DNA of 29,203 nucleotides from Escherichia phage ESSI2_ev239, in sequence record NC_049392.1, one strand, 5' to 3'. Made by a program: the position numbers and the translations under genes. A model generated the notes under the pieces. The model was not told the origin of the DNA and ran no database searches. It worked only from the letters and a program-made list of their open reading frames with translations. Shown here in pieces: positions 5,404 to 29,203 of this stretch (position 1 is the stretch's first letter; every line of letters starts with the position of its first letter).

Positions 5404-5413
5404 AAAAACCTCC

Positions 5414-6007
5414 TTACAAACTCGCGCTGAATGTTGCGCTGCGGGCTTCCGTCCCTGCTAACGTCGCCGGGTAAACCACATATTCCCCCTGATCCCACCC
5501 GGCCCTGATAACCAGGCTTTCAGACGTGATCACCTCAAACTGATAACGGCGGCATGTTCGCCCGTACTGGCGGATTATCTGGATCAGCAGCTGCGTGTTG
5601 TCCGCAATCTGGCTGTCTGTCACCCGAACAAGAATCACATCCCAGTCGATATCCGGTTGCCGTTCTAACAGCTCCACATAACCAATTCCCAGCCGTTCAA
5701 AGATATTGATAAACCCCTCTACTGAACCGGCATCCCGCGCATTCACGAAGGCAAAAGCCACGCGTTTGCGGAACAGGGTCAACGGTTCACCATCAAAGCG
5801 GGTGATATCCCGGTCATAAGCCAGCAGATTCAGTAATGCCGGTGTACACGTCAGCGGATCAAACTGGTTCATTGGCCAGGTAACCCAGCCGTAAACCTCA
5901 GCCCAGAACCGCCGCGCCGCTTTCAGCAATTTCCCCGGTTCGCCTTTATTCATCCAGGAAGGCAAGACCATCCCGGCCAGCTTTTTCATGAACTCATTCA
6001 TTCTCAA
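5414..6007 (-). CDS. Baseplate/tail protein, gpI-like by position
   Basis: 197 aa between the J-like gene and the tail fibre gene, start overlapping the J-like stop. Assignment is by synteny with J-I-H order in P2-like and Mu-like baseplates. Confidence 0.45.
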
Positions 6008-7178: not shown

Positions 7179-7504
7179 AAATCCACCTGATATGAAAGCG
7201 TGCCAAAATCGTATGTGCTCGCGGTCACCCACAGCCGTTTCTGGCTTTCTTCACTGATTTCCACCGTTCCCGGCACAATGCGCTCATCGTTTTCAACCAG
7301 TAATTCCAGTTGTGTAAAAATATCTGCCCTCAGTGTCGGACTGCGTTCCGCAATTAATTGCGTGGCTAATCCGCTCTCAATAATGGCGTGAATAATGTCC
7401 TGCCCGATACTTTTTCGGTTATTGCATAATTCAGGCTCATTACCGGCATTTAATGAAAAGTCACCATTCTCAATAAGCAGGTCAATATAAAGGGCTTCAC
7501 TCAT
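7175..7504 (-). CDS. Putative baseplate wedge protein (gpW/gp25-like)
   Basis: 109 aa; ATG overlaps the tape-measure stop (ATGA) and its stop overlaps the J-like start. Size and position typical of gpW/gp25; sequence similarity is weak by eye. Confidence 0.45.
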   Translation of the reverse strand: MSEALYIDLLIENGDFSLNAGNEPELCNNRKSIGQDIIHAIIESGLATQLIAERSPTLRADIFTQLELLVENDERIVPGTVEISEESQKRLWVTASTYDFGTLSYQVDL

Positions 7505-9468: not shown

Positions 9469-9913
9469 TCCGTGCCTTTAAATGCGGTGCTGATTCCGTT
9501 AGCAACCGCTATTCGCATATTTTCCCAGTGGCGATTATCCAGCCAGATGGCAGCGGAAATATCATCCACGGAATCCTGACCGTGTGGTAAATAATGGCGA
9601 CGCAAAATTAAATACTGTTCGAGTCCGTTCTGTTCAATTGCCCGGACTCGTTTTGTCAGTTTTTTACTTCAATTTCCAGTTCTGGCGCATAAAGCTCATT
9701 CACTTTCCCGGCAAGCTGGAGCGCTGCACCCGGACGTTTCAGAATGTCTTCCAGCGCTTCTTTACTTTCAGCAGACACAATGCGTACAAGATAATTGTGT
9801 GCAGGTGCCACTTTATTATCCATCGCCATTTCGTTGATGAACTTATTATAAGCGGTCTGATTCGGTTCAAAGATAATTTCTTTTTTGCATACAACCAGAT
9901 TAATTTTTTCCAT
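9465..9913 (-). CDS. Tail assembly chaperone, -1 frameshift fusion product (G-T / E-E' type)
   Basis: The -1 frame is open from the slippery heptamer at 9659-9665 to a TGA at 9465-9467 that overlaps the tape-measure ATG. Predicted fusion is about 149 aa (...EIEVKKLTKRVRAIEQNGLEQYLILRRHYLPHGQDSVDDISAAIWLDNRHWENMRIAVANGISTAFKGTE). Confidence 0.5.
9656..9913 (-). CDS. Tail assembly chaperone (zero-frame product)
   Basis: 85-aa ORF immediately upstream of the tape measure gene, ending ...EIEVKN with a TGA stop. Confidence 0.6.
   Translation of the reverse strand: MEKINLVVCKKEIIFEPNQTAYNKFINEMAMDNKVAPAHNYLVRIVSAESKEALEDILKRPGAALQLAGKVNELYAPELEIEVKN
9659..9665 (-). promoter_or_regulatory. Programmed -1 ribosomal frameshift slippery site A_AAA_AAC
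   Basis: Minus-strand AAAAAAC (plus-strand gttttttt) covers the last two sense codons of the chaperone (AAA AAC), two codons before its stop. Confidence 0.5.
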
Positions 9914-10199
9914 AAATAACGTTCTCTCTTAAATTAATTTCATCAACAAGCGCGTTATGCCGTGCAGCACACTGCCCGTATAACTCCAGATAAAGTGTCA
10001 GTAATTCCGCCGCGTCTTTTCCCTGCTTTCCACTCAGGCGCGGCAGCTGCGTGGCGCATTTAGTTTTCAGGTTTTCCTGATAACGTACGTTCGGTACTGG
10101 TGACGGCGTCGTTGTACATGCGGACAAAGTCATCAGACAGACACTTATTGGTAAATACCGGCCTAACCACTTCCGTGCGGATTTCACGCGGTGGCGCAT
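9900..10199 (-). CDS. o-spanin (Rz1-like outer-membrane lipoprotein)
   Basis: N-terminus MRHRVKSARKWLGRYLPISVCLMTLSAC carries a signal peptide and an LSAC lipobox. Starts inside the i-spanin gene in another frame and extends beyond it. Confidence 0.55.
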   Translation of the reverse strand: MRHRVKSARKWLGRYLPISVCLMTLSACTTTPSPVPNVRYQENLKTKCATQLPRLSGKQGKDAAELLTLYLELYGQCAARHNALVDEINLRENVIYGKN

Positions 10200-10392
10200 T
10201 TTTCAGTGCCTCCAGTTTGTCTTCCAGCCGGCGACCGGATGAACCGGCAATTTCAGCCAGTTGTTCCCCGGTCGCGGTGACCGCTTTTGAGACAGTCAGA
10301 TCAACACTGTCCCGCTTCCAGCCGGCCGTTTTCCAGCCAGCTATAAATGCCAGAGCAAGGGTGAATAACCAGCCTGACACGACGCGATCCAT
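10060..10392 (-). CDS. i-spanin (Rz-like)
   Basis: 110 aa with one N-terminal transmembrane segment (WLFTLALAFIAGW) and a charged periplasmic region; immediately downstream of the endolysin. Confidence 0.55.
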   Translation of the reverse strand: MDRVVSGWLFTLALAFIAGWKTAGWKRDSVDLTVSKAVTATGEQLAEIAGSSGRRLEDKLEALKNAPPREIRTEVVRPVFTNKCLSDDFVRMYNDAVTSTERTLSGKPEN

Positions 10393-10733
10393 CAGCGCAC
10401 CCCGTTATGTTCCAGGCTGAAATGATTACCATCAGGGCGGGATTTGAAGCGACCGCCCCATGAACCACCCAGCGATTCCCAGTATTCGCCCAGCGGCAGA
10501 TACGCCGCGCTGTTGGTCTGATACTGGCCATTAATGAACAGATTGAAGTCCACGGCCAGACGCTGCGTGTGCAGACTATTGGAAATGCCGCTGCCTTTTT
10601 TCGCGTTCATTGCAGCCTGTTCCGGGGTACGGTAAGCCTCACCAAACGTCAGTCGGTAGCCATGTTCTTCAGCCCACTGAATCAGATTTGCCACCATAAC
10701 GGTAAAGAGTTGCTGTTTTTCGCTCAGAGTCAT
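10392..10733 (-). CDS. Endolysin, peptidase M15 family (L-alanyl-D-glutamate peptidase type)
   Basis: 113 aa with zinc-binding signature SLHTQRLAVD ... GNHFSLEH (H-x6-D plus a second His) typical of VanY/M15 endolysins; sits between holin and spanins. Confidence 0.7.
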   Translation of the reverse strand: MTLSEKQQLFTVMVANLIQWAEEHGYRLTFGEAYRTPEQAAMNAKKGSGISNSLHTQRLAVDFNLFINGQYQTNSAAYLPLGEYWESLGGSWGGRFKSRPDGNHFSLEHNGVR

Positions 10734-11026
10734 TTCCCTGTCCCTTTATCAAAAATCCCTGTAAAACCCCGCTTACGCAGCCAGGCTTCCACCGCATTCT
10801 GCCCCAGAATACCCAGCGCGGAGCCAAATCCGGCCAGCGCGAGCGGATGAATATCCGGGACAAAGTACAGCGCCACCCCGGCAATCAGTGACAGCCCGCT
10901 GCCCACAATGACACGCCCCGCCACCAGACGAAGGGTGATCGGTTCATCACTGTTAAGCAATTTACCCAGCGCAATCAGCGCCCCCATGACTGCCAGTGCA
11001 ATGAACCCCTTTTCGTACTCCTGCAT
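10730..11026 (-). CDS. Holin (predicted 3 transmembrane segments)
   Basis: 98 aa with three hydrophobic stretches and a basic C-terminus (RKRGFTGIFDKGTGK); directly upstream of the endolysin with overlapping stop/start. Confidence 0.6.
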   Translation of the reverse strand: MQEYEKGFIALAVMGALIALGKLLNSDEPITLRLVAGRVIVGSGLSLIAGVALYFVPDIHPLALAGFGSALGILGQNAVEAWLRKRGFTGIFDKGTGK

Positions 11027-11038
11027 CCCTGCTGCCTC

Positions 11039-11494
11039 TTATCCAATCAGGTTTTCCGTGGCTTCCGCTTCCAGATACGGCACACCGTTGATGTTGACGA
11101 ACTTCGGACTTGTCACGAAGTATTTGATTTTATGCGTGGACACACTGCCACCCTTCGGATCACCATCCAGAACGCTGTTGAGCTGCAGCTTGTTACCAAA
11201 GGTTTCCACCTTCATTTCTTCGCTGCCGGCTTTGGCGTAAAAAAGGAAGTCAACCGGGGGAATACCACGCCATGACCCCGCTGAACGGGCTTTGGCTGTC
11301 AGAACCTGCAGCACTTTGGAGCTGACTTCAATTTCACCCTCGGCGGCAACGTCACCGTCCACATACCCGTCAGGAACACCGCGCGTCTGTGCGGCGGCAC
11401 TGTTATCGGTAATATCCAGCGAAATTTTTTCAATGTGGATCAGGTCACCGTCCAGATAGATATCAAAGGACATCCCTGAAATACGTTTGGTCAT
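11039..11494 (-). CDS. Putative tail tube protein
   Basis: 151 aa immediately downstream of the sheath-sized gene with overlapping stop/start. Assignment by size and order only. Confidence 0.4.
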   Translation of the reverse strand: MTKRISGMSFDIYLDGDLIHIEKISLDITDNSAAAQTRGVPDGYVDGDVAAEGEIEVSSKVLQVLTAKARSAGSWRGIPPVDFLFYAKAGSEEMKVETFGNKLQLNSVLDGDPKGGSVSTHKIKYFVTSPKFVNINGVPYLEAEATENLIG

Positions 11495-12618
11495 GCGCTG
11501 GCCTCCAGACTTGCATCCAGTAACAGACTGATGGTGATCTGCAGCGGTACTTCATACGTACGCACCACAATGTAAATATCCACCGCCTTTTTGTTCTTCC
11601 AGACAATGGTCACGTCACCGTCCTGTGGAGGTTTCACCTCGCCCGGAAATGACACGCCGTTAATGCTGGCCGCAGTGGACATTTCCCGCAGCGGACGGGC
11701 AAACAGCGTCTGGTGTGCGGCAATACTGCCCGGTGTACTGTTAAGTGAGCGATCGGCAATCTTACCGATGGCCAGCAGACGGACGCGGCGTGCTGCCTTA
11801 TCCACAATACGCAGCGTCTCGATGGACTGGTAATCACCGCCCTCAACGTCCAGCGTGCGCCCGTCAGCCCAGTAAAAGCCGTCATAGTCCGGATACCACA
11901 TCGGCACGCTGTAGCGCTGAGCTTCCAGCGCCTGAAGGGTCGCCAGTTCCAGCGTTTCGCCGGTACCGTCTTTCGGCAGTTCATCGCTTCCTGGACTCAG
12001 CAACGCGCCTGTTTTCACCCGCGCCGGACTGTCGGCAATAGTGACAGCACGGTTGCAGAGACGACCAGCCAGCACGCCCGGTTCATTCCCCCAGAGACGG
12101 GGTACCAGTTGTACCGCTTTTTCCGCGATACCTTCCTGAAGGGTGGACAGACGCACCAGATAATCCGCCTGGGTTTCATCCTGCTGCATCCCCTGAACCG
12201 CCAGAATGAACCACACCCAGCGCCCGTATTTAGCAATCAGTTCAGATCGCAGCGTTGCCGCCTGATTAATCTGCGCTTTCGCGGCCACATCATCAGACAG
12301 CACCACACCTTCCACCGAACAGGAGACCTGTGCGGCCTTAACGGCATCCACCCATGCCCCCGGCTCGCTGTCTGCGGCCAGCACATGAACAAATCCCCAC
12401 CAGTTCTGGCCGGCGTTCGCCAGTGCGGCCAGCACATCACTTTTTAACGGGCTGTCACCCTCGCCCAGCAGCGCATCAAAATCACTCTGTGCGTTAACTG
12501 CCAGCGTCTTACCTACATTTTTGGTTCCCGTGCCGATAAACAGCAGCGTGCGCTCCACTTCCGTGGTTTCACCCAGCAGCTGATTTACCTGGTTTACGGT
12601 CACAATTGGCCAGGTCAT
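11491..12618 (-). CDS. Putative tail sheath protein
   Basis: 375 aa between tail completion-like genes and the tube-sized gene. Assignment by size and order only; not visibly similar to P2 FI. Confidence 0.4.
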   Translation of the reverse strand: MTWPIVTVNQVNQLLGETTEVERTLLFIGTGTKNVGKTLAVNAQSDFDALLGEGDSPLKSDVLAALANAGQNWWGFVHVLAADSEPGAWVDAVKAAQVSCSVEGVVLSDDVAAKAQINQAATLRSELIAKYGRWVWFILAVQGMQQDETQADYLVRLSTLQEGIAEKAVQLVPRLWGNEPGVLAGRLCNRAVTIADSPARVKTGALLSPGSDELPKDGTGETLELATLQALEAQRYSVPMWYPDYDGFYWADGRTLDVEGGDYQSIETLRIVDKAARRVRLLAIGKIADRSLNSTPGSIAAHQTLFARPLREMSTAASINGVSFPGEVKPPQDGDVTIVWKNKKAVDIYIVVRTYEVPLQITISLLLDASLEASA

Positions 12619-13319
12619 GCTCTCCCCCTGATATCCTGCGCGTTAACATCCCAGCCGAACCCGATAGCCTGCAGCTGTCGCGCCAGCGCTTTGTTAAAAT
12701 CGTCCTGACCTATCCCCAGAAACGCCCTGGCAGGTAAATCAATCTGCCAGGACGTTTTGACCGGTTTGTCCTCCAGTATCCGGATAAGCAAACCTGCCTG
12801 TCTGGCGGTCATCCTTTCCTGTATTTCCTTATAACCGGGCTTACGCCAGCGCTTACCGCGCCTGACTTTATACCCGGCCTTGCGCAGACGTTTCGCCTGT
12901 CGCAGTGATGCAGGCTTGTCTCCCTGCTCACGGCCTTCCACCTGCTTACGGTTGACGGTCACGCTCATGCCGTTCTGCTGGACATACCCCACCACGCCGG
13001 CAGGCAGATTTCCCTTCGCATTCCGGTAATGACCACCGGCCAGATACAGCCTGACCGACTCTGTTTCAGGCATTTCCCGGATGCGGATCAGTTTCGGCAT
13101 ATTGCGCAACATTTTGCCTTTACGCCGGGTCTGTCGCGCCTGCCACTTATCACCCTCCGGCGACTGCTGATTGCGCACATTACGCTTTGCTGCGGCTTCC
13201 ACGCCGTATTTCGCTATACGCCACAACAGCCGGCGACGTTTCGCAGAAGGTAAATCCAGCTTTTTCAGCGCCTCCTGGAGCTGGCGGAACTGTTCCTTGT
13301 TCAGCTCGCCATTTATCAT
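12615..13319 (-). CDS. Phage virion morphogenesis / tail completion protein (gpS-like)
   Basis: 234 aa with a strongly basic C-terminal half; position after the head completion gene and before the sheath corresponds to gpR/gpS. Confidence 0.5.
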   Translation of the reverse strand: MINGELNKEQFRQLQEALKKLDLPSAKRRRLLWRIAKYGVEAAAKRNVRNQQSPEGDKWQARQTRRKGKMLRNMPKLIRIREMPETESVRLYLAGGHYRNAKGNLPAGVVGYVQQNGMSVTVNRKQVEGREQGDKPASLRQAKRLRKAGYKVRRGKRWRKPGYKEIQERMTARQAGLLIRILEDKPVKTSWQIDLPARAFLGIGQDDFNKALARQLQAIGFGWDVNAQDIRGRA

Positions 13320-13798
13320 TCCTGCCCCTCACTGACCGGGATCACCGTCACCTCATCAGCCGTCCAGACTTCGGGGTTTGCCAGCTTCCAGCGCTGGCCA
13401 TCAAACGGGATCTGGCCTTTGGGATCGGGAACCAGATTAAGTTCCTCCACCATTGGCAGCGTCACCACCATGATGGCGGTTTCCTGGTCGATGGTTTCGA
13501 TATCAAATTCCGGCAGCTCGGCGTCAATGCCGGTTTCCTCAAAGAGCGTGCGCTCATCCTGGCAAAGCCACGACATAAACAAAGCCATCAGGATTTTGGG
13601 ATCGTACTCGCGGTAGGGATAACGCTCCCACGTCAGCACGGCGTTATAACGGATGATGGCAATACGGTACTGCCCCAGCCCGGTGTCCCGCTGTGCCGGG
13701 ATGAACGCGATCTCGTCCATCTGGCTGTCAAATCCCTGCATTGCCCGTCTGGGCATGTTGGCAATGAGAAAATCGGTTAATTCCGTTAACTGGCTCAT
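13316..13798 (-). CDS. Putative tail completion protein (gpR-like)
   Basis: 160 aa, acidic, between gpL and the gpS-like gene with overlapping junctions. Assignment by position. Confidence 0.4.
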   Translation of the reverse strand: MSQLTELTDFLIANMPRRAMQGFDSQMDEIAFIPAQRDTGLGQYRIAIIRYNAVLTWERYPYREYDPKILMALFMSWLCQDERTLFEETGIDAELPEFDIETIDQETAIMVVTLPMVEELNLVPDPKGQIPFDGQRWKLANPEVWTADEVTVIPVSEGQE

Positions 13799-14286
13799 AT
13801 CATGGCCACCGTAATGCGTTGCAGCCCTTTGATGCGGCGTACTGCCAGTGTGGACTCCGCAATCAGGCTGGAGCGTGTTTCGTCACTTTCCTGCCCCGGA
13901 TGGCTCTCACGGCGACCAACAGAGGCAAACTCGCCCATCAAATCAGCTTTGGCACGTGCATATACCGCTTTGCGATAACGGGCGCACAACAGATTTTCGC
14001 CGTCAATTTCCACGCCCGGAACGTGCGCCGCGCGCTCATGACCAGCGCTGCGATACCTTGCCGCCACACTGACCAGATCATCATTGATTTCGCCGGCTGC
14101 AGTCAGCAGCGCCTGGCGGATGGTGGCCGCATCAATATCGGCCGGAATGGTGCGCTGGGACTGAAAATCTTTCACGCTCAGGTCAGGCCAGAAGCCATCA
14201 TTCGTCAGAGTGGCATCGTCAAAATCAATTGAAGTTCCGCTGAACATCCTGTTTCTCCGGAAAAAAGCGGGCTGGCCGGTTTCCAC
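13795..14286 (-). CDS. L: Head completion/stabilisation protein (P2 gpL family)
   Basis: 163 aa; position after M and conserved blocks (FWPDLSVKDF, RKAVYARAKADLMGEFAS, LAVRRIKGLQRITV) parallel P2 gpL. Confidence 0.7.
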   Translation of the reverse strand: METGQPAFFRRNRMFSGTSIDFDDATLTNDGFWPDLSVKDFQSQRTIPADIDAATIRQALLTAAGEINDDLVSVAARYRSAGHERAAHVPGVEIDGENLLCARYRKAVYARAKADLMGEFASVGRRESHPGQESDETRSSLIAESTLAVRRIKGLQRITVAMI

Positions 14287-14533: not shown

Positions 14534-15247
14534 TCAAACTCCTGTAGACTCTTTTTTCAGCGCCCGCAGACGCGCAGCAATACGCTGCAACATCGTGCCA
14601 ACACCACATTTAGGGTCGAATCCCTTCGCCTGCTCCAGCAATTCCTTCGCCCGGAGCAATACTTCCCTGTCTTCCGTTGCCGCTGCGCGTGGCTCTCCGT
14701 TTTCATCGCGTAGCAGGTGCAGACCGGCAAACTTCAGGTATTTGGCCTTAATGACCTCATACACATTCCAGTGCTGCGTCACGTTTTCCAGCGTACGGCC
14801 AAAATACGGCTCCACATCATGCCCCTGCACGGCTTCCGCTTCCGCCCAGGACAACACCGTATCCGCCACAAACACCGGGAACGTACTGCCGAACGCGGCC
14901 GGGGTTTCCTGTCCCCGCTGGATTGCCACATCCGCCCAGTCCAGCGCCTGGTCAAACTGGCCTGTATCAAACAGCCAGACGACACACCAGGCAAAAACAG
15001 GATTCTGTTGCACACTGTCACCTTCCAGCCAGGATTGCGCGGTTGGCATCCAGCGCGGTAACAGCACATCACGCTTAAACTCCATGCGCTCAGCGCGGCT
15101 TTCAATCGCTGCGGCAGCGGCGACATCTTTCTCCAGCGCGACAATCTGAATATGCAGGCTGGTTTCCGTGTCCAGAGACTGCTGCTGTCGCAGTAACCGC
15201 TCCGCTTCAATTCGTGCGCTGTGGCGCTGTGCCGGTGACAGTTGCAT
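14534..15247 (-). CDS. M: Terminase small/endonuclease subunit (P2 gpM family)
   Basis: 237 aa; N-terminal SPAQRH motif and position after the capsid gene match P2 gpM. Confidence 0.8.
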   Translation of the reverse strand: MQLSPAQRHSARIEAERLLRQQQSLDTETSLHIQIVALEKDVAAAAAIESRAERMEFKRDVLLPRWMPTAQSWLEGDSVQQNPVFAWCVVWLFDTGQFDQALDWADVAIQRGQETPAAFGSTFPVFVADTVLSWAEAEAVQGHDVEPYFGRTLENVTQHWNVYEVIKAKYLKFAGLHLLRDENGEPRAAATEDREVLLRAKELLEQAKGFDPKCGVGTMLQRIAARLRALKKESTGV

Positions 15248-17330: not shown

Positions 17331-19133
17331 ATGGCAAGGAAGCCAATGGCAAAATACAGTGAAGAACTAAAAGGAGTGGCAAGGGCGCTATACCTGAAGC
17401 GCTATACACCGCAGGAAATTGCCAGCGAACTTAACTTACCCAACCGGCGAATTGTTTATTACTGGGCGGAGAAATATTGCTGGGCGGAACTGCTCAGTCA
17501 TGAATCCACGGAAGACGCGCTGAATCGCCGCGTGCAGTCGCTGACGCTGCGAGAGGGAAAATCAGAGCTGGAGCTACGCGAGCTGGACAGCCTCGTAGCC
17601 CATCTGGTGAAACTCCGTGCGCAGCATAATAAGCATCAGGAAAAGCTGGCCGAAATTAAACACCGTGGCGGCGAAGATGGAGCTGCACCGCGCCAGTCTG
17701 GTGATGGGGATAAATCGGGTAAACGCGGAAAATACAAAAAGAACGATATCAGCAAACTTACTCAGGAGGATTTTGACGCATTCGCCGCAGAGCATTTCTT
17801 CGGCTATCAAAAACATCTGCGAGCCAATCTTGGCCAGCAGGTCAGAAATATACTCAAAAGCCGCCAGATTGGCGCTACCTGGTATTTTTCGATAGAAGCC
17901 TTTGAAAGTGCGGTTATGACAGGCGATCCGCAAATTTTTCTCTCTGCATCCAAAGCCCAGGCGGAAGTCTTTCGCAGCTACATCGTCAACATCGCAGAGC
18001 AGTATTTTGGCGTGGAACTCACCGGCAACCCCATCCGTCTGTCCAACGGCGCGGAGCTGCGCTTCCTGTCCACCAACAAAAATACCGCACAGTCCTATAA
18101 CGGCCATCTGTACTGTGATGAATATTTCTGGGTTCCGAACTTCGCCAAACTGAATGAAGTGGCCAGCGCAATGGCCACGATTGATAAATGGCGCACCACC
18201 TACTTTTCCACGCCAAGCAGCAAGACCCACCAGGCGTACCCGTTCTGGACAGGCGAGGAATGGAAGCGCGGCGACAAAAAGCGCGCACGAACAGTATTCC
18301 CGACCGATAAAGAGCTGCGCGACGGTGGGCGGCTTTGTCCTGACGGCCAGTGGCGTTACATCATTACGATGGAAGACGCTATCGCCGGTGGCTTTAACCT
18401 GGCCAGCATCGAGAAGCTACGCAACCGCTACAACCGCGACACGTTCAACATGCTCTATATGTGCATATTCGTGGACAGTAAAGACAGCGTATTTTCGTTC
18501 TCCCGCGTCGAAAAATGCTGTGTCGATCCGGATACGTGGGAAGACCATGACGAAGACCTTCCCCGCCCGTTCGGTAACAGAGAGGTATGGGCGGGCTATG
18601 ACCCCGCCCGCAGCGGCGATACGTCCACCTTTGTGATTATCGCGCCGCCGATACTGGCCGTCGAAAAGTTTCGCGTGCTGCGCGTTTTCCACTGGCAGGG
18701 GATGAACTGGAAATGGCAGGCGGCACAGATTAAGAAGCTGTTTGGCCAGTACAACATGACCTACATCGGTATTGATATCACCGGGCTGGGAAGCGGTGTC
18801 TTTGAAGACGTTCAGCACTTTGCCATGCGCCAGGCAGTCGCGATCCGCTACGGCGTCGAGACCAAAAATCGTCTGGTGATGAAGATGATTGACGTAATCG
18901 AAGACGGCCGCGTGGAATGGGATAAGGAGAAGACCGAAATCGCCGCCAGCTTTATGACCATCCGGCGCACGTCCACGGCCAGCGGCAACGCGATGACGTT
19001 CGTCGCCGACCGCACAGCAGAAACAGGCCACGCAGACAGTTTCTGGGCTATCGCCCACGCTATCGACAATGAACCACTCAATTACGGAAACCAGCGTAAA
19101 TCCCGCTGGGGAAACTTAGGGAAAGCAGCATGA
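17331..19133 (+). CDS. P: Terminase large (ATPase) subunit (P2 gpP family)
   Basis: 600 aa, divergent from O across a ~170 bp AT-rich intergenic region, as P and O are arranged in P2; followed by the portal gene with overlapping stop/start. Confidence 0.85.
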   Translation: MARKPMAKYSEELKGVARALYLKRYTPQEIASELNLPNRRIVYYWAEKYCWAELLSHESTEDALNRRVQSLTLREGKSELELRELDSLVAHLVKLRAQHNKHQEKLAEIKHRGGEDGAAPRQSGDGDKSGKRGKYKKNDISKLTQEDFDAFAAEHFFGYQKHLRANLGQQVRNILKSRQIGATWYFSIEAFESAVMTGDPQIFLSASKAQAEVFRSYIVNIAEQYFGVELTGNPIRLSNGAELRFLSTNKNTAQSYNGHLYCDEYFWVPNFAKLNEVASAMATIDKWRTTYFSTPSSKTHQAYPFWTGEEWKRGDKKRARTVFPTDKELRDGGRLCPDGQWRYIITMEDAIAGGFNLASIEKLRNRYNRDTFNMLYMCIFVDSKDSVFSFSRVEKCCVDPDTWEDHDEDLPRPFGNREVWAGYDPARSGDTSTFVIIAPPILAVEKFRVLRVFHWQGMNWKWQAAQIKKLFGQYNMTYIGIDITGLGSGVFEDVQHFAMRQAVAIRYGVETKNRLVMKMIDVIEDGRVEWDKEKTEIAASFMTIRRTSTASGNAMTFVADRTAETGHADSFWAIAHAIDNEPLNYGNQRKSRWGNLGKAA

Positions 19134-20149
19134 AGAAACGCAAATTCCGGGAGCGCCGCAGCGCCCCAAAACCGCGTCATATGAGCCTTATCAGCCTGGG
19201 TAAGCCTGAACCCATTCTGACCACCGGCACAAACTATACCGATGTGTGGTACGACAACGAGGCAGAGCACTGGACGCTGCCGATTGACCGGCTGGCACTG
19301 GCGCAACTGGTGAACCTCAATGCACAGCACGGCGGCGTGCTGTATGCCCGTCGCAATATGGTGTCGGCAAACTATGAAAATGGCGGGCTTACGCATGAAC
19401 AGCTGGGGGCGGCAGTATTCGACTGGCTAACGTTCGGTGATGTGGCCATTCTGAAGGTGCGCAATGGATGGGGGGATGTGGTGGCGCTGTATCCGCTGCC
19501 GGCGCTGTACACCCGGCAGCGCAAAACCGGAGAATTCGTCGTGCTGCAACAGGCTGAACCAATGATTTACCCCCCTGAAGATATCATCTTCCTGAAGCAG
19601 TACGACCCGCAGCAGGCGGTTTATGGCCTCCCGGACTACATCAGCGGCATTCATTCCGCACTGCTGAACGGTGAGGCAACTATCTTCCGCCGCCGTTACT
19701 ACCACAACGGCGCTCACACCGGGGGCATTATCTATTCCAATGACCCGAACATGACCGACGAAGTGGAAGAAGAGATTATCAGCAAGCTGGAACAGTCGAA
19801 GGGGATCGGGAATTTCAGCACCATGTTCGTGAATATTCCCAAAGGCGATCCGGACGGCATCAAATTTATTCCGATTGGCGATATCAGCGCCAAAGATGAG
19901 TTTCAGAACATCAAGAGCATCAGCGCCCAGGACGTTCTGACCGCGCACCGCTTTCCGGCCGGACTGGCGGGGATTATCCCGACGAACGGCGCAGTAATGG
20001 GAGATATTGAGAAAGCGGCTAAAACCTACCGTAAAGCTGAAATTTTACCCGTTCAGCGTATGTTTGCGGCAGCGATTGCTGGCCAGAGCGATATTCCACA
20101 GCATTTGTACCTGAATTTCCTGAAAGACAGCGAGCTGGAAGGTGATTAA
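19130..20149 (+). CDS. Q: Portal protein (P2 gpQ family)
   Basis: 339 aa; overlaps the terminase stop by 4 nt; P-then-Q order as in the P2 PQ operon. Confidence 0.85.
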   Translation: MKKRKFRERRSAPKPRHMSLISLGKPEPILTTGTNYTDVWYDNEAEHWTLPIDRLALAQLVNLNAQHGGVLYARRNMVSANYENGGLTHEQLGAAVFDWLTFGDVAILKVRNGWGDVVALYPLPALYTRQRKTGEFVVLQQAEPMIYPPEDIIFLKQYDPQQAVYGLPDYISGIHSALLNGEATIFRRRYYHNGAHTGGIIYSNDPNMTDEVEEEIISKLEQSKGIGNFSTMFVNIPKGDPDGIKFIPIGDISAKDEFQNIKSISAQDVLTAHRFPAGLAGIIPTNGAVMGDIEKAAKTYRKAEILPVQRMFAAAIAGQSDIPQHLYLNFLKDSELEGD

Positions 20150-20202
20150 TGCCACTAAAAAGGCTAAAATATAGGCGTTTTCAGGGCCATGGAGCGCGGA
20201 AT

Positions 20203-20472
20203 ATGCGGGTACTAAAAGTAAAATGTCCGGAGTGCGGGGCAAAAGCGATCATCAAAAAGACGAATCCCAAGCACCCCCATATTTCAGATATTTACTGCGC
20301 CTGTTCTGACGTGGAATGCGGTCATACCTTCGTGCTTAACCTGACGTTCTCCCACACATTAAGCCCCAGTGCCAAGACCGGGGACTTGATGGTGCAGACG
20401 ATCCTCAATTCCTTCTCGCCAGAACAGAAGCAAATGACGCTGGATTTATTGAAAGCCGGAATGGCTGCATAG
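20203..20472 (+). CDS. ogr: Ogr/Delta-family zinc-finger late transcription activator
   Basis: Track ORF starts at 20149; preferred start is MRVLKVK, preceded by GGAG. Cysteine spacing C-x2-C-x22-C-x4-C (CPEC ... CSDVEC) matches the Ogr/Delta zinc finger. Confidence 0.7.
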   Translation: MRVLKVKCPECGAKAIIKKTNPKHPHISDIYCACSDVECGHTFVLNLTFSHTLSPSAKTGDLMVQTILNSFSPEQKQMTLDLLKAGMAA

Positions 20473-21155: not shown

Positions 21156-23882
21156 TTATTTTTCCCTACGGAATATCCAGCAACGGAATGTATCCGGCAT
21201 GCGTTGCATTTCACCTTTGCCACGGTTATGGCGTTCACTCACTGCGCTGCGCGTGGTTTTGGTGTCGATAAAACGGCGCTCGTTGCCGTTTTTAAGCAGC
21301 TTTTTAATCTCGGTTAAAGTAAACGGAATACGCTGCCGGTGGGCGGCGGCGACTTCTTCCAGATGGTTAAAATTGACCGCTATTTCACCTTCATCCGATG
21401 AATGGTTAATACCATGCGGTGCCAGCTCGTCGAGGTAGTCAAACAGCTCCCAAAACTCCTGCACCAGAGGGTGATCCTTTTTAAGCGCCTGACACCGTTC
21501 CACGGCCAGCGCGGTGATGGCCTCGCGGGTCTTCTCAATACGCTCCACCGGCACCGGCACAACCAACGCCAGCGCTTCCAGCAAACCGACCAGTTGCGCA
21601 TGGTTTTTGGCGATACGGATATGGCGGATATTGGTATTAGACTCCAGCTCGCCACGGGCGCGTTCGTAGCCCTGGCCAAACACCTTCATGATTTCTTTTT
21701 CACGCATAGTGGCCAGCAGGGTGAAACCAGATACCTGGCTGACTGGGATCTGCTCAAGGCGTTCAGCGGCATAGCGGGTCTGAATAGACTGGCCACGCTT
21801 GTCGGTATAGATGTGGATGATACGCTCCAGAAACGCCTTACTGCCGTCTGTGTCGGCGTTCTGCGCTATCACTATGCTGCCCCTGAATGGCGGCTCGTAG
21901 GTCTCGTTATTGTTCGATTTGATACCCACAGCGCGGGAGGCGCGACCGTTATACAGTGATTTCAGCTCGTCCCAGTCAAAAGCGCGTTGTTTAGCGTTAT
22001 CGGTAGTACGGTCGCCCTCAATCAGCACAACCGGCAAATTACCGACCTGCGCAAAGTTACGGCCACGCGCTGCGGCTGTCGATTTGGAAGGATCAAACCC
22101 TTCATACTCTTCACGGCCGGCGAGTTTCCACAGAAATTCAATCAGCGTGGATTTACCTGTTCCCGGTTCCCCCACGATTTCAAGAAACGGGAAAGACTTG
22201 TCACGCTCGCGGATTTGCTCAGCAAACAGCGACCCCAGCCAGAACGCCAGAGCCACATACCCTTTTTCACCAAAAGCCGTCCAGATATCGTCTACCCAGC
22301 CCGTAGTAAATTCGTTCAGCTTCGGATTCAGATCCAGCGACGGCGTGAGGCTCAGGCTCTTGACGCTGGCGCTGTTGATTTCGAAATAATCTTCATCGTT
22401 CATTTCGTACAGCCGGCCATCACAAACAGCCACGCGATTAAACAGCCATGCAGCATAATCCTTGTTATAGCCAATGAAATTTTGCGTCTTAACCTCTTTG
22501 ATTTCAGGGAGGCGCATCTGGATGAACTTATCCAGCTGTTTGGTACTGCCGGTGTACACCGCACCTTTGGCGATATGCAGCAGACGTTTTTTAAACTCGG
22601 CGGAACTGGTTAACTGGTTGGCCGTGAAAGTATCTTTCACGGCTGGCCGGTTCGGCATATTGACCTTCACGTAATACCAGGACTCGTCTGTAGGTTCAGA
22701 CCGCTGGAAGTAAAGCGGCGTCAGCCAGCAGTTGGCGATTTCAGTCACGCCACCTGACTCTTTAACCGCCCGTTCTTTGGCCTCCCACTCCATCACCACT
22801 TCAGTACCGGTATTGGTGATGCGCTCATAAGCTCGCATGTACCTGTCCAGATCCAGCTCAAACCAGTACATGCGGGAGTTATGCTCAAAATAGAACGAAT
22901 GCCACTCGTTATGCTGATGCATGAGCAACGCTTTTTCAGTCGGGCTTTTCGCCAGAAGGATATCGCCATAGTAGCGATAATTTTTGATGTCCGATTTGCT
23001 GAACCGCCCACGTAAAAGCAGGTCATTCCAGTCCAGACTGGAGGATGATTTCACCGGCTGCGCCGCGCGAACTTTCCAGCCGGCTTCCTCGCTACGGGCA
23101 GCAAAGGCCAGCGTGTGCTTAGTGCCAGCTCTGTCACCATCAAACGCCCATATCAGGCGTGGGCGGGGTTTCTCGCCCAGCTCTTTAGCCAGGGTATCCA
23201 GCGCCACCAGTGGGTAATTATTGCTGCTCAGTGTGGCCACAGCGGGTAAACCCGCCTGGCACAGGCTCAGCGCGTTGAAGATGCCCTCAGTGATCCAGAT
23301 TTCATTCACTTCCAGCAGGTTCACAGACGGCGGAACCCACCAGTGGCCAACGTAGCTGCCTCTGATGTTCGCTTTCTGCTTACCAAAGCGCTGCGGCTGG
23401 TCAATGATGCGCTCCCATGTCGCACCGCAGGTCAGCTTAAATCTGACGGTTGCCGACCCCATACCATCTTTGGCAAACGCCCCCTGGGTAAAGCAACCTT
23501 TCAGCGGTTCAGTATCCAGCCCTCTCGCCTCGCGCAGATACGCCTCAGCTACCGCATGAGGGTTATCTTCTGTGGCCTGGTACCGTTTTGACCAGTCTTC
23601 AAAAATATCCGGATACAGCTCTTTGACAACGACCTGATGGCCGCAGTTGTTTTCGCGGCCGCACTTCAGGATCCAGGGCTTTTCTATGCTGGTAAATAAT
23701 TCACGTTTGTGGCATTTAGGGCAAACGCCCTGTTGCAGATATTTATCCCGTTCCTTGAATTCAAAATCCTGAACGAGTCGGCACACAACGTCCTGCTGTA
23801 TTGTGGCATTCATAATTAATCCAGATGTAGAAAGGTGTGAAAGGCAAAAACTATATTCGGTATTGTTTGTTATATCGCTCAT
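21156..23882 (-). CDS. Replication primase-helicase (zinc-finger + Toprim primase + P-loop NTPase; P4 alpha-like architecture)
   Basis: 908 aa with CPKCH...CGRENNCGH zinc motif, Toprim-like EGIFNA and AFDGDRAG, and Walker A GEPGTGKS. Start may be the internal MNATIQ (about 23813). Confidence 0.75.
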   Translation of the reverse strand: MSDITNNTEYSFCLSHLSTSGLIMNATIQQDVVCRLVQDFEFKERDKYLQQGVCPKCHKRELFTSIEKPWILKCGRENNCGHQVVVKELYPDIFEDWSKRYQATEDNPHAVAEAYLREARGLDTEPLKGCFTQGAFAKDGMGSATVRFKLTCGATWERIIDQPQRFGKQKANIRGSYVGHWWVPPSVNLLEVNEIWITEGIFNALSLCQAGLPAVATLSSNNYPLVALDTLAKELGEKPRPRLIWAFDGDRAGTKHTLAFAARSEEAGWKVRAAQPVKSSSSLDWNDLLLRGRFSKSDIKNYRYYGDILLAKSPTEKALLMHQHNEWHSFYFEHNSRMYWFELDLDRYMRAYERITNTGTEVVMEWEAKERAVKESGGVTEIANCWLTPLYFQRSEPTDESWYYVKVNMPNRPAVKDTFTANQLTSSAEFKKRLLHIAKGAVYTGSTKQLDKFIQMRLPEIKEVKTQNFIGYNKDYAAWLFNRVAVCDGRLYEMNDEDYFEINSASVKSLSLTPSLDLNPKLNEFTTGWVDDIWTAFGEKGYVALAFWLGSLFAEQIRERDKSFPFLEIVGEPGTGKSTLIEFLWKLAGREEYEGFDPSKSTAAARGRNFAQVGNLPVVLIEGDRTTDNAKQRAFDWDELKSLYNGRASRAVGIKSNNNETYEPPFRGSIVIAQNADTDGSKAFLERIIHIYTDKRGQSIQTRYAAERLEQIPVSQVSGFTLLATMREKEIMKVFGQGYERARGELESNTNIRHIRIAKNHAQLVGLLEALALVVPVPVERIEKTREAITALAVERCQALKKDHPLVQEFWELFDYLDELAPHGINHSSDEGEIAVNFNHLEEVAAAHRQRIPFTLTEIKKLLKNGNERRFIDTKTTRSAVSERHNRGKGEMQRMPDTFRCWIFRREK

Positions 23883-25345: not shown

Positions 25346-25666
25346 ATGGCACATATGTCAAGTATGGGTGAGAAGTTTCGTTTAATCCGCAAGGCTGAGG
25401 GAATGACCCGCCAAGAGTTTGCTGATGCAGTTGGCTTACCTTATGGAACGCTAACGAACTACGAAACAAAGGGTTTCCAAGTAACAGAAGGCGCTCTTAT
25501 GAAGATAACCAAAAACCCAAGATTCAAAAAATACGCTTACTGGCTTTCAACGGACGAAACCATGCCGGAGGTAGGTCAAATATCCCCGGCTCTCTCTCTT
25601 GATGGGTCAGAGCAACCGGAGGATATTCCGGATTTAACCCCCAAAACAGCAAAATCACACCGTTAA
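25346..25666 (+). CDS. C: Immunity repressor (P2 C-like, helix-turn-helix)
   Basis: Track ORF starts at 25013; preferred start MAHMSSMGEKF follows GGAGG at about 10 nt. HTH segment TRQEFADAVGLPYGTLTNYE; about 106 aa, directly upstream of int. Confidence 0.7.
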   Translation: MAHMSSMGEKFRLIRKAEGMTRQEFADAVGLPYGTLTNYETKGFQVTEGALMKITKNPRFKKYAYWLSTDETMPEVGQISPALSLDGSEQPEDIPDLTPKTAKSHR

Positions 25667-25750
25667 AAGCTGAAAATTGGTTAGACCTGTATTTTGAATT
25701 TGCTGACTGCCTGTGGTCGCAGGCCGGAAGCTACATCGGAGGGCTTCGCT

Positions 25751-26734
25751 ATGGCGATTAAGAAGCTCGATGATGGACGTTATGAACTGGACACAAGAGC
25801 GGGCGGACGCACCAGTAAGCGGATCCGCAAAATATTTAACAGAAGGGCTGATGCTGTTGCGTATGAACGCTACATGCTGGGTAAGTTTCAGCGCAAGGAA
25901 TGGGATCCGGCAGCACAGATTGACAGGCGCACGCTGGACGATATCAGAGAATTGTGGTGGCTCTACCACGGCCAGACGCAGAAGAATGGCGAGATTGAAA
26001 ACAGGCATCTCATCAAAACCATTACCGCGCTGGATAATCCGCAGGTAGGCGAGGTTAACAAACGAATGCTGATAGTCCACCGCAGCCGCAGGCTGGCGCA
26101 GGGAATAAGCGCATCCACGGTCAACCGCGATATTTACCGGCTGTCCGGCATGTTCAGCGCACTGATCAAGCTGGATGAGTTTGAGGGGGAAAACCCGCTG
26201 CGTGGTCTGCCTCCCCTGAAAGAGAAAAATCCCGGCATGACCTTTCTCACAAAACCGGAAATTAGCCGCCTGCTGGACACGCTGACGGGCGATTACCGAC
26301 TGGTTGCCCTGCTGTGCCTCAGCACAGGCGGACGCTGGGGAGAGGTCAGTACGCTGACGGAATCGCAGATTATGCACGGCCGTGTCGTATTCCTGGAAAC
26401 GAAGAACGGCAAAAAGCGCGTGGTTCCCATCTCTTCCGAACTGGAAGACGAAATTATGGCCAACGCCAGCGCGGGGCTGTTCCGGGTGGACTATGAAAAC
26501 TTCTGCCGGAAGCTGCGGAAGGTCAAGCCAGACCTGCCACGCGGTCAGGCCACCCACATTCTGCGACACACGTTCGCCAGCCACTTTATGATGAACGGCG
26601 GGAATATCATTGCGCTTCAGCAGATACTTGGCCATGCCAGCATTCAGCAGACGATGGCGTATGCGCATCTGGCACCGGATTATCTCCAGAACGCTATCGC
26701 ACTGAATCCGCTGAAAGGGGGGCTGGGAGTCTGA
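25751..26734 (+). CDS. int: Tyrosine integrase (P2 Int-like)
   Basis: Start MAIKKLDDGRYE, preceded by GGAGGG, matches the P2 Int N-terminus; catalytic region HILRHTFASHFMMNGGNIIALQQILGH...MAYAHL carries the R-H-R-Y signature. Confidence 0.9.
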   Translation: MAIKKLDDGRYELDTRAGGRTSKRIRKIFNRRADAVAYERYMLGKFQRKEWDPAAQIDRRTLDDIRELWWLYHGQTQKNGEIENRHLIKTITALDNPQVGEVNKRMLIVHRSRRLAQGISASTVNRDIYRLSGMFSALIKLDEFEGENPLRGLPPLKEKNPGMTFLTKPEISRLLDTLTGDYRLVALLCLSTGGRWGEVSTLTESQIMHGRVVFLETKNGKKRVVPISSELEDEIMANASAGLFRVDYENFCRKLRKVKPDLPRGQATHILRHTFASHFMMNGGNIIALQQILGHASIQQTMAYAHLAPDYLQNAIALNPLKGGLGV

Positions 26735-26739
26735 TAATT

Positions 26740-26970
26740 CCGTCCACATGTGGACGCATTTTTCCGTTTCGGGACTGCCTGAAACCGCCTGAAACGGAAG
26801 TGTGGACAGTGTGGACGGTAAAATTGGCCTGAAAAGTTTGTAAGTCGTTGAAAAAAAAGACCCCCACATCATGTGGGGGAAGACAGGGATGGTGTTGTTT
26901 TAAAAAGCATAAATCATTGATATTGTTGTATTTATATTGAAATTTCCGTCCACAAAACGTCCACATCGAC
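26740..26970. other. attP attachment site: Int arm-type repeats flanking a hairpin core
   Basis: Left arm GTCCACATGTGGAC (about 26742-26755) and TGTGGACAGTGTGGACGG (about 26801-26818); core hairpin cccccacat-cat-gtggggg preceded by A8 (about 26851-26879); AT-rich spacer; right arm CCGTCCACAAAACGTCCACA (about 26946-26967) in opposite orientation. Confidence 0.6.
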
Positions 26971-27189: not shown

Positions 27190-28293
27190 ATGAAATATAT
27201 TTTTGAATACGGATTTTATCTCAGCATACTTATAGCGACAATATATGTCACTTCTAAGTTTTTGGGTATTACACCTGCAAAACATAAATACGCCTCACTT
27301 GATGGCTTACGTGGAATTTGTGCAGCAATGGTTGCTGTATTCCATCTTTACTGGAGAGCCGGAGGAGAATCAGATATATACTGGTCTCTTGAGTACATTA
27401 CACTCAGCAATGTAAAACGCGCCATATATCTAACAGGTGAGTTATCTGTTGGTGTATTTTTTATGCTGTCTGCTTTTTTATTTTTCAAAAAGGCACTGGC
27501 GAACTCCTTCGATGTAAAAAGTTTTGCAATTTCACGATTCATGCGAATTTACCCACCTGTAGTGGTTCTTTTATTTATAATATATATTGCAACATTTATC
27601 ATGAATCCGGATGACCATACTCCAGTATCGCAATGGTTTATACCTTCATTACCATTTATATTCAATCCACCTGGAGCTAACATCAATGGTGTATCGCTCC
27701 AGATTGCCACATCTGGTGTGTTCTGGACGTTAGTCTGGGAATTACGCCTATACCTTGCAATTCCATTTTTATATCTGATAATGAAAAACATAAAATATAA
27801 AGAAGCATTTGTTATTTTTTTAATGGGATGTATTTTGTTATTCAAGTATTTTATAAATAATGAACAATACCTGAGTTATATAATGTATTTCCTTGCCGGA
27901 TTTCTTGTCGCTACAATCAAGAGTAACAAGCGCCCATCAGATATAATCTGCGTTTTATTATTATTCGCAGCTATATATTTCACTCGACATGCTTACAACA
28001 CTACAACTCCGCTTTATATGTTTGTTATTTTCTACACAATAAAGTGCGGATGTGATTACTTTGGCTTACTTACATCCCTGCCTGTAACTATGCTGGGAAC
28101 CTGCAGTTTCTCCCTTTATTTAGTTCATGGGATAACTCAGACAGTATCTAAACATTATTTATATAGCACAGGAAACTATGTTTGGCAGATTTGTGCAATT
28201 ATTGCGGCAGGTATCATTGCGCCGGTTATGTACAAATATGTCGAAAGTCGCAGCATCATACATAAGCCTCCTCACCTTCAGATTGCAAAGTAG
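27190..28293 (+). CDS. Acyltransferase family 3 integral membrane protein (candidate O-antigen O-acetyltransferase, lysogenic-conversion moron)
   Basis: 367 aa, about 10 hydrophobic segments, N-terminal signature LDGLRGICAAMVAVFH typical of the Oac/OafA-type acyltransferase-3 family; markedly AT-rich compared with the phage backbone. Confidence 0.75.
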   Translation: MKYIFEYGFYLSILIATIYVTSKFLGITPAKHKYASLDGLRGICAAMVAVFHLYWRAGGESDIYWSLEYITLSNVKRAIYLTGELSVGVFFMLSAFLFFKKALANSFDVKSFAISRFMRIYPPVVVLLFIIYIATFIMNPDDHTPVSQWFIPSLPFIFNPPGANINGVSLQIATSGVFWTLVWELRLYLAIPFLYLIMKNIKYKEAFVIFLMGCILLFKYFINNEQYLSYIMYFLAGFLVATIKSNKRPSDIICVLLLFAAIYFTRHAYNTTTPLYMFVIFYTIKCGCDYFGLLTSLPVTMLGTCSFSLYLVHGITQTVSKHYLYSTGNYVWQICAIIAAGIIAPVMYKYVESRSIIHKPPHLQIAK

Positions 28294-28299
28294 AACATT

Positions 28300-28322
28300 T
28301 GCGCCCCTGAACAGGGGCGTTA
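28300..28322 (+). terminator. Possible intrinsic terminator after the acyltransferase gene
   Basis: GC-rich hairpin gcgcccctg-aa-caggggcg just after the stop; weak U-tract. Confidence 0.35.
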
Positions 28323-28387
28323 TCCCACCGCGCTGTTAAAATTTTGTTTCGTCTCACCCCGCATTTTTAAGTTGCCCATCGGAAAAA

Positions 28388-28653
28388 CGTCACAACCATC
28401 ACACATCAAAGAAACACCACCTATCCACATGATTATCATGAATAAAATTTGTGACGGTAAAACCATCACAAAACGTAACACAAACCGTCACACTCAATAA
28501 ATTCAGCGAGTTATAAAACAGAGCTGTGATGTTTTAAGGCCGTCACACTGTGATGCTCTTGTGATAGTTTTGTGATGGTTTTCAATATATGAATTTACTT
28601 ATACATATCATATAGATAAATGATATTTTTAAAATCTGTGATGTTTGTGACGG
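28388..28653. repeat. Iteron-like array of about 11 TGTGA(C/T)GG motifs in both orientations (candidate replication origin or regulator binding array)
   Basis: Motif copies at about 28388, 28396, 28450, 28463, 28485, 28524, 28540, 28548, 28571, 28636 and 28646, several as inverted pairs; AT-rich block (tatatgaatttacttatacatatcatatagataaatgatattttt) lies inside; no ORF of 60 aa or more. Confidence 0.5.
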
Positions 28654-29126
28654 TTTTCCGATGCTCCCCCTCAATTTTTGAAAAAATAAGAAGTGGTCAG
28701 AAATCACCCTGATTTGTTGGTGAGTTTGTTTCTCTCTCTGTTACTGATTTGGTTACTGGTGGCAGCATGTGTGCACAGGGATGGGAGCAGACGGATCTGT
28801 GCAAGGTATTTCAGTTGTGCCGGTTCGTACAGTTCCCCGTAAACCCGTGCCAGCTGCGGCTTTCTGTTTTTAAACGCTTACGAGAGCCGGCGCCGGCCGT
28901 TACGTAAAAAATCACGTAATCACAACTCATCCCGCATGGCTCAGGGCTTTAGCTCCTGTTACGCCCTGCCTTCCATCGCACAAAAACTGAAATCTTTGAA
29001 ATCTGTTTCACACATTTCAGTTTGAGATCTGGTCTCAAAGCCCCAGCGCTGGCGCGGTCTGGCGGTATGTTTTGTACCCCCGGAAAAACTGAAATCATTC
29101 TCAACACGAAAACCGCAGGCGGGGGC

Positions 29127-29203
29127 CTGTCTCTTATACACATCTCCGAGCCCACGAGACTCCTGAGCATCTCGTATGCCGTCTTCTGCTTGAAAAAAAA
29201 AAA
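29127..29203. other. Sequencing adapter contamination (Nextera read-through adapter with 8-nt index, P7 tail and poly-A)
   Basis: CTGTCTCTTATACACATCTCCGAGCCCACGAGAC + TCCTGAGC + ATCTCGTATGCCGTCTTCTGCTTG + A11 is the standard Nextera i7 adapter structure; not biological sequence. Confidence 0.9.

Follow-up and report, generated by a model that had tools for sequence, protein, structure and literature searches.

The repeats just inside the right-hand contig end of this phage genome are best explained as the flank, on the right-end side of a P2-family cos site, that terminase recognises, and we put the probability of this reading at roughly 0.8. The cut site, cosN, would be GGCGGGTGCGGTGTAGCGC, which in the window (the whole stretch of 29,203 nucleotides analysed here) is divided between 29118–29126 and 117–131. 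We favour this reading because of where DNA ends fall in this and other assemblies, the homology with the cos regions of P2, 186 and P4, the position-specific conservation of the repeats and the concerted switch of their copies in one sublineage. The sequence-only reading had offered a packaging or terminase recognition region as one of two possible roles; in its favour, an invariant 19-mer at the DNA ends starts 22 nt after the repeats, and the flank is homologous to that of P2, 186 and P4. From these comparisons we infer protein binding, the identity of the reading subunit, and the length and polarity of the overhang.

Genome setting and repeat array

The window is the genome of a P2-family myovirus, from a temperate, ESSI-2-like phage of the Peduoviridae. 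Tail, fibre and spike genes occupy 307–13800 on the minus strand. The portal gene (19130–20149) is followed by a gene for an Ogr/Delta-like zinc-finger late activator (20149–20472), which occupies the slot where P2 and 186 have cos. The integrase gene (Int_N and Phage_integrase domains) lies at 25694–26734 on the plus strand, and a 405-aa minus-strand ORF at 25655–26872, without a family match, is its shadow. Near 26860–26900 there is a joined attP, at which the window becomes identical to prophages that are flanked by host DNA; this makes the window the excised form rather than a prophage. GTCCAC-type repeats lie on both sides of this attP, which is just downstream of the integrase, and related prophages adjoin fieF/pfkA in Citrobacter-like genomes or raiA in E. 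coli. Between attP and cos, just upstream of the repeats, is an acyltransferase gene (Acyl_transf_3; 27190–28293, plus strand), a slot in which ev040, ev129 and YenM324 carry other cargo genes. An identification of the gene beside the repeats as an integrase with its attachment site downstream was rejected, as the gene encodes the acyltransferase and attP is upstream. The repeats themselves lie where the acyltransferase (plus) and spike (minus) genes converge, in the longest non-coding stretch of the genome.

The sequence AAAAACTGAAATC occurs exactly at 28982–28994 and 29084–29096, 102 bp from start to start, in agreement with the direct repeat about 100 bp apart that had been noticed by inspection. 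Allowing up to one mismatch, the window contains 4 matches versus 0.06 expected, and the other two (47–59 and 5142–5154) are a single tail-fibre coding sequence that is present twice. The 9-mer AACTGAAAT has 7 copies in the window versus 0.25 expected. An inverted repeat had also been described and does exist, but its length is not 10 bp: 28984–29001 pairs with 29006–29023 (18 nt, 89%), and the exact 10-mer ATTTCAGTTT at 29014–29023 pairs also with 29086–29095. The G+C-rich blocks are present as reported (GGCGCGGTCTGGCGG at 29052–29066 and CCGCAGGCGGGGG at 29113–29125), although the letters of the last one, which is the start of the cut site itself, need amending. Base 29124 is G in the window and T in seven otherwise identical relatives, the sole mismatch in 833 nt; situated 3 bases from the adapter junction, it is probably an error, and the true block would be CCGCAGGCGGGTGC. 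The only ORFs in the region (28949–29170 and 28959–29141, minus strand) both begin inside the adapter and are artefacts, as had been supposed. A further inverted copy, ATTTCAGTT, lies at 28808–28816, 310 nt from the nick, in a block that is conserved in the E. coli homologue. Relative to the predicted top-strand nick, the repeats span −136 to −22, and the features are as follows.

28982–28994, plus strand: distal repeat 1, AAAAACTGAAATC; CTGAAA core at −131
28995–29003, plus strand: distal repeat 2, degenerate, TTTGAAATC; family consensus ACTGAAATTC, core at −121/−122
29004–29012, minus strand: inverted half-copy, TGTTTCACA; family consensus TTTTCA at −111/−112
29013–29023, minus strand: inverted repeat copy, CATTTCAGTTT; TTTCAG at −103
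29036–29065, no strand: conserved G+C block, CAAAGCCCCAGCGCTGGCGCGGTCTGGCGG, containing the palindrome CCAGCGCTGG; GGCGCG at −67
29070–29077, plus strand: conserved TTTTGTAC; family consensus TTTGTAG at −47
29084–29096, plus strand: proximal repeat, AAAAACTGAAATC, with CTGAAA at −29; corresponds to ACTGCATT in the 55-bp cos core of P2 and P4
29108–29117, plus strand: GAAAACCGCA, final bases before the predicted top-strand nick; AAAACCG common to P2, 186 and P4

DNA ends in the window and in related assemblies

The window represents linear DNA from virions of a P2-family, ESSI-2-like phage and was assembled from a Nextera library. Nextera adapter (CTGTCTCTTATACACATCT followed by i7 N704, P7 and poly-A) runs from 29127, and the last genuine base is 29126. 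Ten prophages that encode the identical acyltransferase, and E. coli prophages (un-annotated, and 83% identical over 28300–29127), read ...AAAAACTGAAATCATTCTCAACACGAAAACCGCAGGCGGGTGCGGTGTAGCGCCGTTTTCG... uninterrupted. In these prophages, the end of the window continues directly into window 124 onward through ...CCGCAGGCGGGTGCGGTGTAGCGCC...; both contig ends are therefore inside one short segment, and they fall within one invariant 19-mer, GGCGGGTGCGGTGTAGCGC, that is unbroken in the related prophages. Adapter at one end and a chimera at the other can both be understood, because dead ends are expected at a physical terminus. The features at the two ends are listed below.

29118–29126, plus strand: first 9 nt of the predicted cosN, GGCGGGTGC; 29124 probably miscalled as G; genuine sequence ends here
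29127–29203, no strand: Nextera adapter read-through (ME, i7 N704, P7) and poly-A; artefact
1–116, no strand: copy of tail-fibre gene bases 5096–5211 fused to the left DNA end; most likely an artefact
117–131, plus strand: rest of the predicted cosN, GGTGCGGTGTAGCGC; 117–123 doubles as the 7-nt microhomology of the chimera
132–163, plus strand: right cos flank with two TTTCGTC copies (135–141 and 155–161), 20 nt apart; conserved islands GCCGTTTTCGTC and TTTATTTCGT

Window 1–123 is a 100% copy of 5096–5218, joined through the 7-nt microhomology GGTGCGG, and this join is absent from the junction in all ten close prophages and in every relative. Because the copy is exact, the joint is a microhomology and no relative has the join, 1–123 is most likely a PCR, extension or assembly chimera formed at a free cohesive end. 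The chimera gives the false impression of a second fibre-like ORF on the minus strand (152 to 1). Taken at face value, this ORF, a second fibre-like N-terminus at the window start that matches Pfam Phage_tail_fib, would suit an origin of the repeats as a decayed tail-fibre gene fragment or as a recombination or inversion site for fibre switching. So would the one-mismatch 13-mer copies TAAAACTGAAATC in the fibre gene (5142–5154) and at 47–59, and the DFSF that is encoded by the minus-strand motif (translation ..ENDFSFSG..; compare GDFSFNW in the fibre). We find such an origin scarcely credible: the ORF lies in the copied segment, the similarity to the fibre gene is confined to a 12-mer, more than 100 non-coding flanks, which have no conserved reading frame, keep the motif in both orientations, and no relative has an alternative orientation of the junction. 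Both an invertible or deleted fibre segment (of the Gin/Cin/Min type) and a fibre pseudogene were rejected because 1–123 is an exact duplicate and every relative has the same direct junction. Elsewhere, in one related prophage (L006, 13977–18612), a 4.6-kb fibre and baseplate segment is inverted, with breakpoints inside genes and no inverted repeats; it reflects either an assembly error or a disabling rearrangement.

The break in the window has counterparts in eight other phage assemblies or GenBank records, which stop, contain adapter or are missing bases at this spot. In the list below, the bases of CCGCAGGCGGGTGCGGTGTAGCGCC are numbered 1–25, such that base 14 is window 29126 and bases 10–16 are window 117–123.

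Window: last genuine base on the right is base 14, followed by adapter
ESSI-2 (HQ110083), which is colinear with the window: base 7 is its first and base 21 its last; 15-nt terminal redundancy GCGGGTGCGGTGTAG at both ends
ESSI2_ev040 (LR597638): sequence interrupted between bases 14 and 16 by Nextera adapter (P5/i5/ME)
ev129 (LR597640): adapter and then base 18 (GTAGCGCC) at the start; ends at base 9 (GCAGGCG), then adapter
ev015 (LR597649): adapter and then base 18 (GTAGCGCC) at the start; ends at base 14 (GGCGGGTGC)
Salmonella phage SW5: opened at base 14 / base 13
Salmonella phage SI7: bases 15–21 (GGTGTAG) missing at the junction
IMG/VR contig of 28,216 bp: starts at base 15 (GGTGTAGCGCC), ends at base 14 (GGCGGGTGC)

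All of the ends, scars and small deletions, in the window and in the eight others, fall between bases 7 and 22 of this one segment. The right end is at the window's own last base (29126) in ev040, ev015, SW5, SI7 and the IMG/VR contig, and the left-end starts differ among assemblies, from the 13th to the 22nd base. A random break would fall in such a stretch of 10–16 nt in about 1 in 2,000–3,000 assemblies. Transposase libraries lose phage termini (PMC5557969), and this loss, together with the ends and scars of the different assemblies at a single segment, indirectly identifies that segment as the probable cosN. The 15-nt terminal redundancy of ESSI-2 resembles the cosL/cosR of the P2 record. 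Virion ends that map elsewhere and repeats that are not conserved had been named in advance as observations that would count against a packaging role; we found the opposite on both counts, with assembly ends that map to the 19-mer and repeats that are conserved.

The adapter occupies 29624–29665 in LR597638, 1–43 and 30879–30927 in LR597640, and 1–48 in LR597649, and the 7-nt gap (GGTGTAG) of SI7 is at about 20480 in MK972712. These four public records contain adapter or lack bases and need correction. The position of cos explains why Nextera assemblies of ESSI-2-like phages break here.

Homology with P2-type cos regions and conservation among relatives

The passages of PMC3931495, PMC5694545 and PMC9594776 that draw on Ziermann & Calendar 1990 give P2, 186 and P4 cos 19-nt 5′ cohesive ends and a 55-bp conserved core. 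With the flanks aligned, the 19-mer of the window phage is identical to the P2 cohesive end GGCGAGGCGGGGAAAGCAC at 11 of 19 positions and has the same GGCG start and AGC.C end. No match to the P2 19-mer with up to 3 mismatches was found in the window, the true site differing at 8 positions, and the cut site was located via relatives instead. Left of the nick, the conserved core flank (..CTGCATTAAAACCG..) has a counterpart of ACTGAAAT at equal distance, and AAAACCG precedes the cut site in the window phage, P2, 186 and P4 alike; the intervening hairpin is absent here. ACTGAAAT and ACTGCATT have 6 of 8 bases in common and lie at the same 29–30 nt from the nick, with ACTG(A/C)A(A/T)T as the proximal element common to all four phages. 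Farther out, P2, 186 and P4 have TGCAT arrays in the same layout, each with three more copies about 100–125 nt from the nick. The G+C block also has counterparts to the left of cos, CTGGCGCGG(T/C) in 186 and GGCGCGGTCTG in P4; their distance from the nick is 49 nt, versus 60 nt here. The alignment to P2-like cos regions that had been proposed as a check recovers homology in both the 19-mer and its left flank.

The window phage therefore resembles P2, 186 and P4 in having a G+C-rich cut site that starts with GGCG and has AAAACCG just to its left, a cluster of the proximal short motif 100–130 nt away, a gpP/gpM-type terminase and an accessory-gene hotspot adjoining cos; in common with 186 and P4, it also has a GGCGCGG block between the proximal element and the distal cluster. 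It differs in its motif, CTGAAA rather than TGCAT, in lacking their short hairpin between AAAACCG and the nick, and, compared with 186 and P4, in a G+C block whose distance from the nick is greater by 11 nt (one helical turn). Cos adjoins the portal gene Q in P2 and 186, a position that is typical but not defining, whereas cos at 29118 is about 9 kb from the portal gene and sits between the spike gene and the attP/accessory region, a layout found in the whole ESSI-2 group. About 140 nt left of cos in P4, just outside the TGCAT array, TTTTTACTGAAAAAAG is close to the ESSI-2-type TTTTTACTGAAAAAAAG; the likeness may be chance or deep homology.

On the basis of the flank alignment to P2, 186 and P4, we infer a top-strand nick between 29117 and 29118 and a bottom-strand nick after window 131. 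By homology with P2, cosN most likely gives 19-nt 5′ cohesive ends, although the ESSI-2 record implies 15 nt (GCGGG...GTAG) rather than 19 nt. Each of the two most common captured ends (base 14 and base 16) lies at a distance of 9 nt from a predicted nick, which equals the Tn5 stagger.

In a collection with one genome per species, at least 120 loci contain GCAGGCGGGTGCGGTGTAG exactly, almost all of them from Enterobacterales; a few matches, in G+C-rich genomes, are due to chance. The genera include Xenorhabdus, Photorhabdus, Yersinia, Serratia, Proteus, Morganella and Providencia, as well as Hafnia, Rahnella, Pectobacterium, Kosakonia, Enterobacter, Citrobacter and Salmonella. Element positions relative to the predicted nick were counted in 119 distinct true flanks.

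−131: CTGAAA, 83/119
−121: CTGAAA, 74/119; [ACG]TGAAA, 85/119
−111/−112: TTTCA[CGT], 52/119
−102/−103: TTTCAG (inverted), 93/119
−67: GGCGCG, 70/119
−47: TTTGTA, 83/119
−30/−29: CTGAAA, 106/119

In the information profile of a 124-sequence alignment, these fixed elements form information-rich islands with variable spacers between them. In the window, the two direct copies correspond to the elements at −131 and −29, and the inverted copy to the one at −103. Across the cut, the two TTTCGTC copies of the right flank change together between lineages (TTTTGT twice, or TTACGTGGGG/TTTCGTGGGG, that is, TTACGT/TTTCGT), and the pair may be a second recognition element. Most relatives (L039–L158) have three GATCC copies (the Dam site) at −153, −142 and −15, which the lineage of the window does not. 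Orphan 19-mers in Photorhabdus (L073, L075, L096 and L106) were considered as array-less satellites and rejected; they are remnants that keep about 25 nt of the left flank, and at least those of L096 and L106 adjoin the host dnaG–rpoD.

Among named phages, Cronobacter phage ESSI-2 (HQ110083, Seongnamvirus), Escherichia phages ESSI2_ev015, ev040 and ev129 (Quadragintavirus), Yersinia phage vB_YenM_324, and Salmonella phages SI7 and SW5 (Irrigatiovirus) have the same layout, 19-mer and array architecture, and large terminase subunits that are 58–74% identical. SI7 and SW5 carry a TGCAA variant of the array and the others the CTGAAA form. Compared with these relatives, the window phage has a primase-type replication module and the acyltransferase gene. 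Megablast of the region against phage records gave no match, and only the distant mode found ESSI-2, to which the flank is about 76% identical over 95 nt. None of the related records that we examined has a cos annotation, and, leaving aside the ESSI-2 genome paper, our literature search found no description of cos for the ESSI-2-like group.

Seven loci without CTGAAA or TTTCAG have 4–8 copies of TGCAA/TTGCA at the same positions, with cosN unchanged and the same gene order; the sequenced Salmonella phages SI7 and SW5 are of this type. The hosts of the TGCAA sublineage overlap those of CTGAAA phages (for example, Yersinia, Enterobacter and Hafnia). On sequence comparison, CTGAAA, TGCAA and TGCAT appear as three motif classes in one architecture, and the simplest reading of the concerted switch would be a single phage-encoded reader with a shifted specificity.

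The same data bear on whether this is indeed a cos flank but one in which specific recognition is limited to about 55 bp around the nick, the repeats being sites for host architectural proteins (IHF-, Fis- or HU-like) or phased A-tracts. The elements are A/T-rich and contain A-tracts, two loci (L080 and L154) retain the proximal half only, and lambda cosB requires bending by IHF. Nevertheless, we consider a host-bending role unlikely because all copies switch from CTGAAA to TGCAA within the same host genera. In addition, the proximal repeat region has no match by eye to the IHF consensus WATCAANNNNTTR, and P4, which has only the cos region in common with P2 (PMC9122126), keeps the distal TGCAT cluster even though this cluster is outside the 55-bp core. 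In the terminase recognition reading, the loci with the proximal half suggest that the distal array (the first direct copy and the inverted copy) may be auxiliary or dispensable.

The flank is kept across replication modules, which have a Toprim primase in the window and gpA in ESSI-2, ev040 and YenM324, and it stays with the terminase type while these modules differ. This bears on the second role that had been proposed at the outset, a regulatory one, which we extend to a replication element: a promoter, operator, late-activator site, terminator, or an origin with iterons. Elements repeated in both orientations would be compatible with such a role, as would one weak terminator-like hairpin in the G+C block (29047–29064) and an unrelated iteron-like cluster 400 bp upstream. 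We regard it as very improbable, and nothing supports the proposal, as two convergent genes have their 3′ ends on either side of the region and leave nothing for it to drive. Moreover, there is no promoter-like site within 28982–29126, an Rfam search of the region returned only one chance-level miRNA match, and the element stays with cosN while the neighbouring genes and the replication module change.

The upstream cluster is a feature of its own. At 28380–28660, TGTGA(C/T)GG(TTTT) occurs densely and in both orientations (7 strict copies plus degenerate ones) around an A/T-rich centre at 28590–28640, and the cluster includes a 70-nt imperfect inverted repeat. Of about 160 loci, 28 have it, all in the lineage of the window and whether or not the acyltransferase gene is present. 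By analogy with the ori/crr iterons of P4, it could be a putative origin for the Toprim primase (21156–23882).

Terminase subunits and a proposed recognition mechanism

The two terminase genes, 14 kb from cos, are as follows.

14534–15247, minus strand: small terminase subunit, P2 gpM family; Pfam PF05944, E = 1e-38; phrog_74
17331–19133, plus strand: large terminase subunit, P2 gpP family; Pfam Terminase_5, Terminase_6N and Terminase_6C

The small subunit is 29% identical to P2 gpM and 54% identical to the TerS of ESSI-2, and the large subunit is 45% identical to P2 gpP. From sequence, the small subunit is a candidate reader of the repeats, and the large subunit is the candidate cosN nuclease and a second candidate reader. 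The Terminase_5 (gpP-like) domain of the latter, at residues 14–67, can be read as a helix-turn-helix. Its putative recognition helix is LPN[AR]RI[VI]YYWA[EQ]K in four CTGAAA-type phages, IP-PRTIYHWADVG in SI7 (TGCAA type) and MK-RPTVQSWKQRD in P2 and 186 (TGCAT type), the TGCAA side of this comparison resting on SI7. The alignment of small subunits has no obvious class-specific change of specificity between motif classes. The difference in the helix between motif classes is suggestive of a reader in the large subunit and is confounded with phylogeny.

Lambda cosB consists of the gpNu1-binding elements R3–I1–R2–R1 beside cosN. The array described here is similar: its short repeats, found in both orientations, lie no more than about 130 bp from the nicking site and are presumably bound by terminase. 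By the lambda map convention, however, the repeats are on the opposite side of the cut site, and the small subunit belongs to PF05944, which is unrelated to gpNu1.

We propose that the array comprises four or five CTGAAA elements: a distal group of three or four at 95–135 bp from the nick, in both orientations, and a single proximal one at 29 bp, with the conserved G+C block between the distal group and the proximal element. The terminase would contact this array with its gpM-type small subunit, with the helix-turn-helix at the N-terminus of its gpP-type large subunit, or with both. Binding would bend or wrap about 110 bp of DNA and thereby place the nuclease on cosN, where staggered nicks would start or finish packaging. 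P2-type terminase reportedly takes circular monomers as its substrate.

A bolder proposal is that the short-motif arrays (CTGAAA, TGCAA and TGCAT) form a modular packaging-specificity code in which the N-terminal helix-turn-helix of the large subunit is the reader, either alone or together with the small subunit, and in which arrays and reader helix switch together. We offer it tentatively and think it rather doubtful. If it is true, the code sets packaging groups and thereby the phage or satellite genomes that a given helper phage can package.

The kind of element is known and no new type of system is involved; what is new is the location of cos, which is unannotated in all of the related records examined. 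Genome ends and a packaging signal are thereby assigned, at the strength given above, for a widespread and little-studied group of temperate Enterobacterales phages, the ESSI-2-like Peduoviridae. The CTGAAA array, its natural TGCAA variant and the P2-type TGCAT array make up a comparative series for DNA recognition by P2-type terminases, which could also be used in designing cosmids or transducing particles for these hosts.
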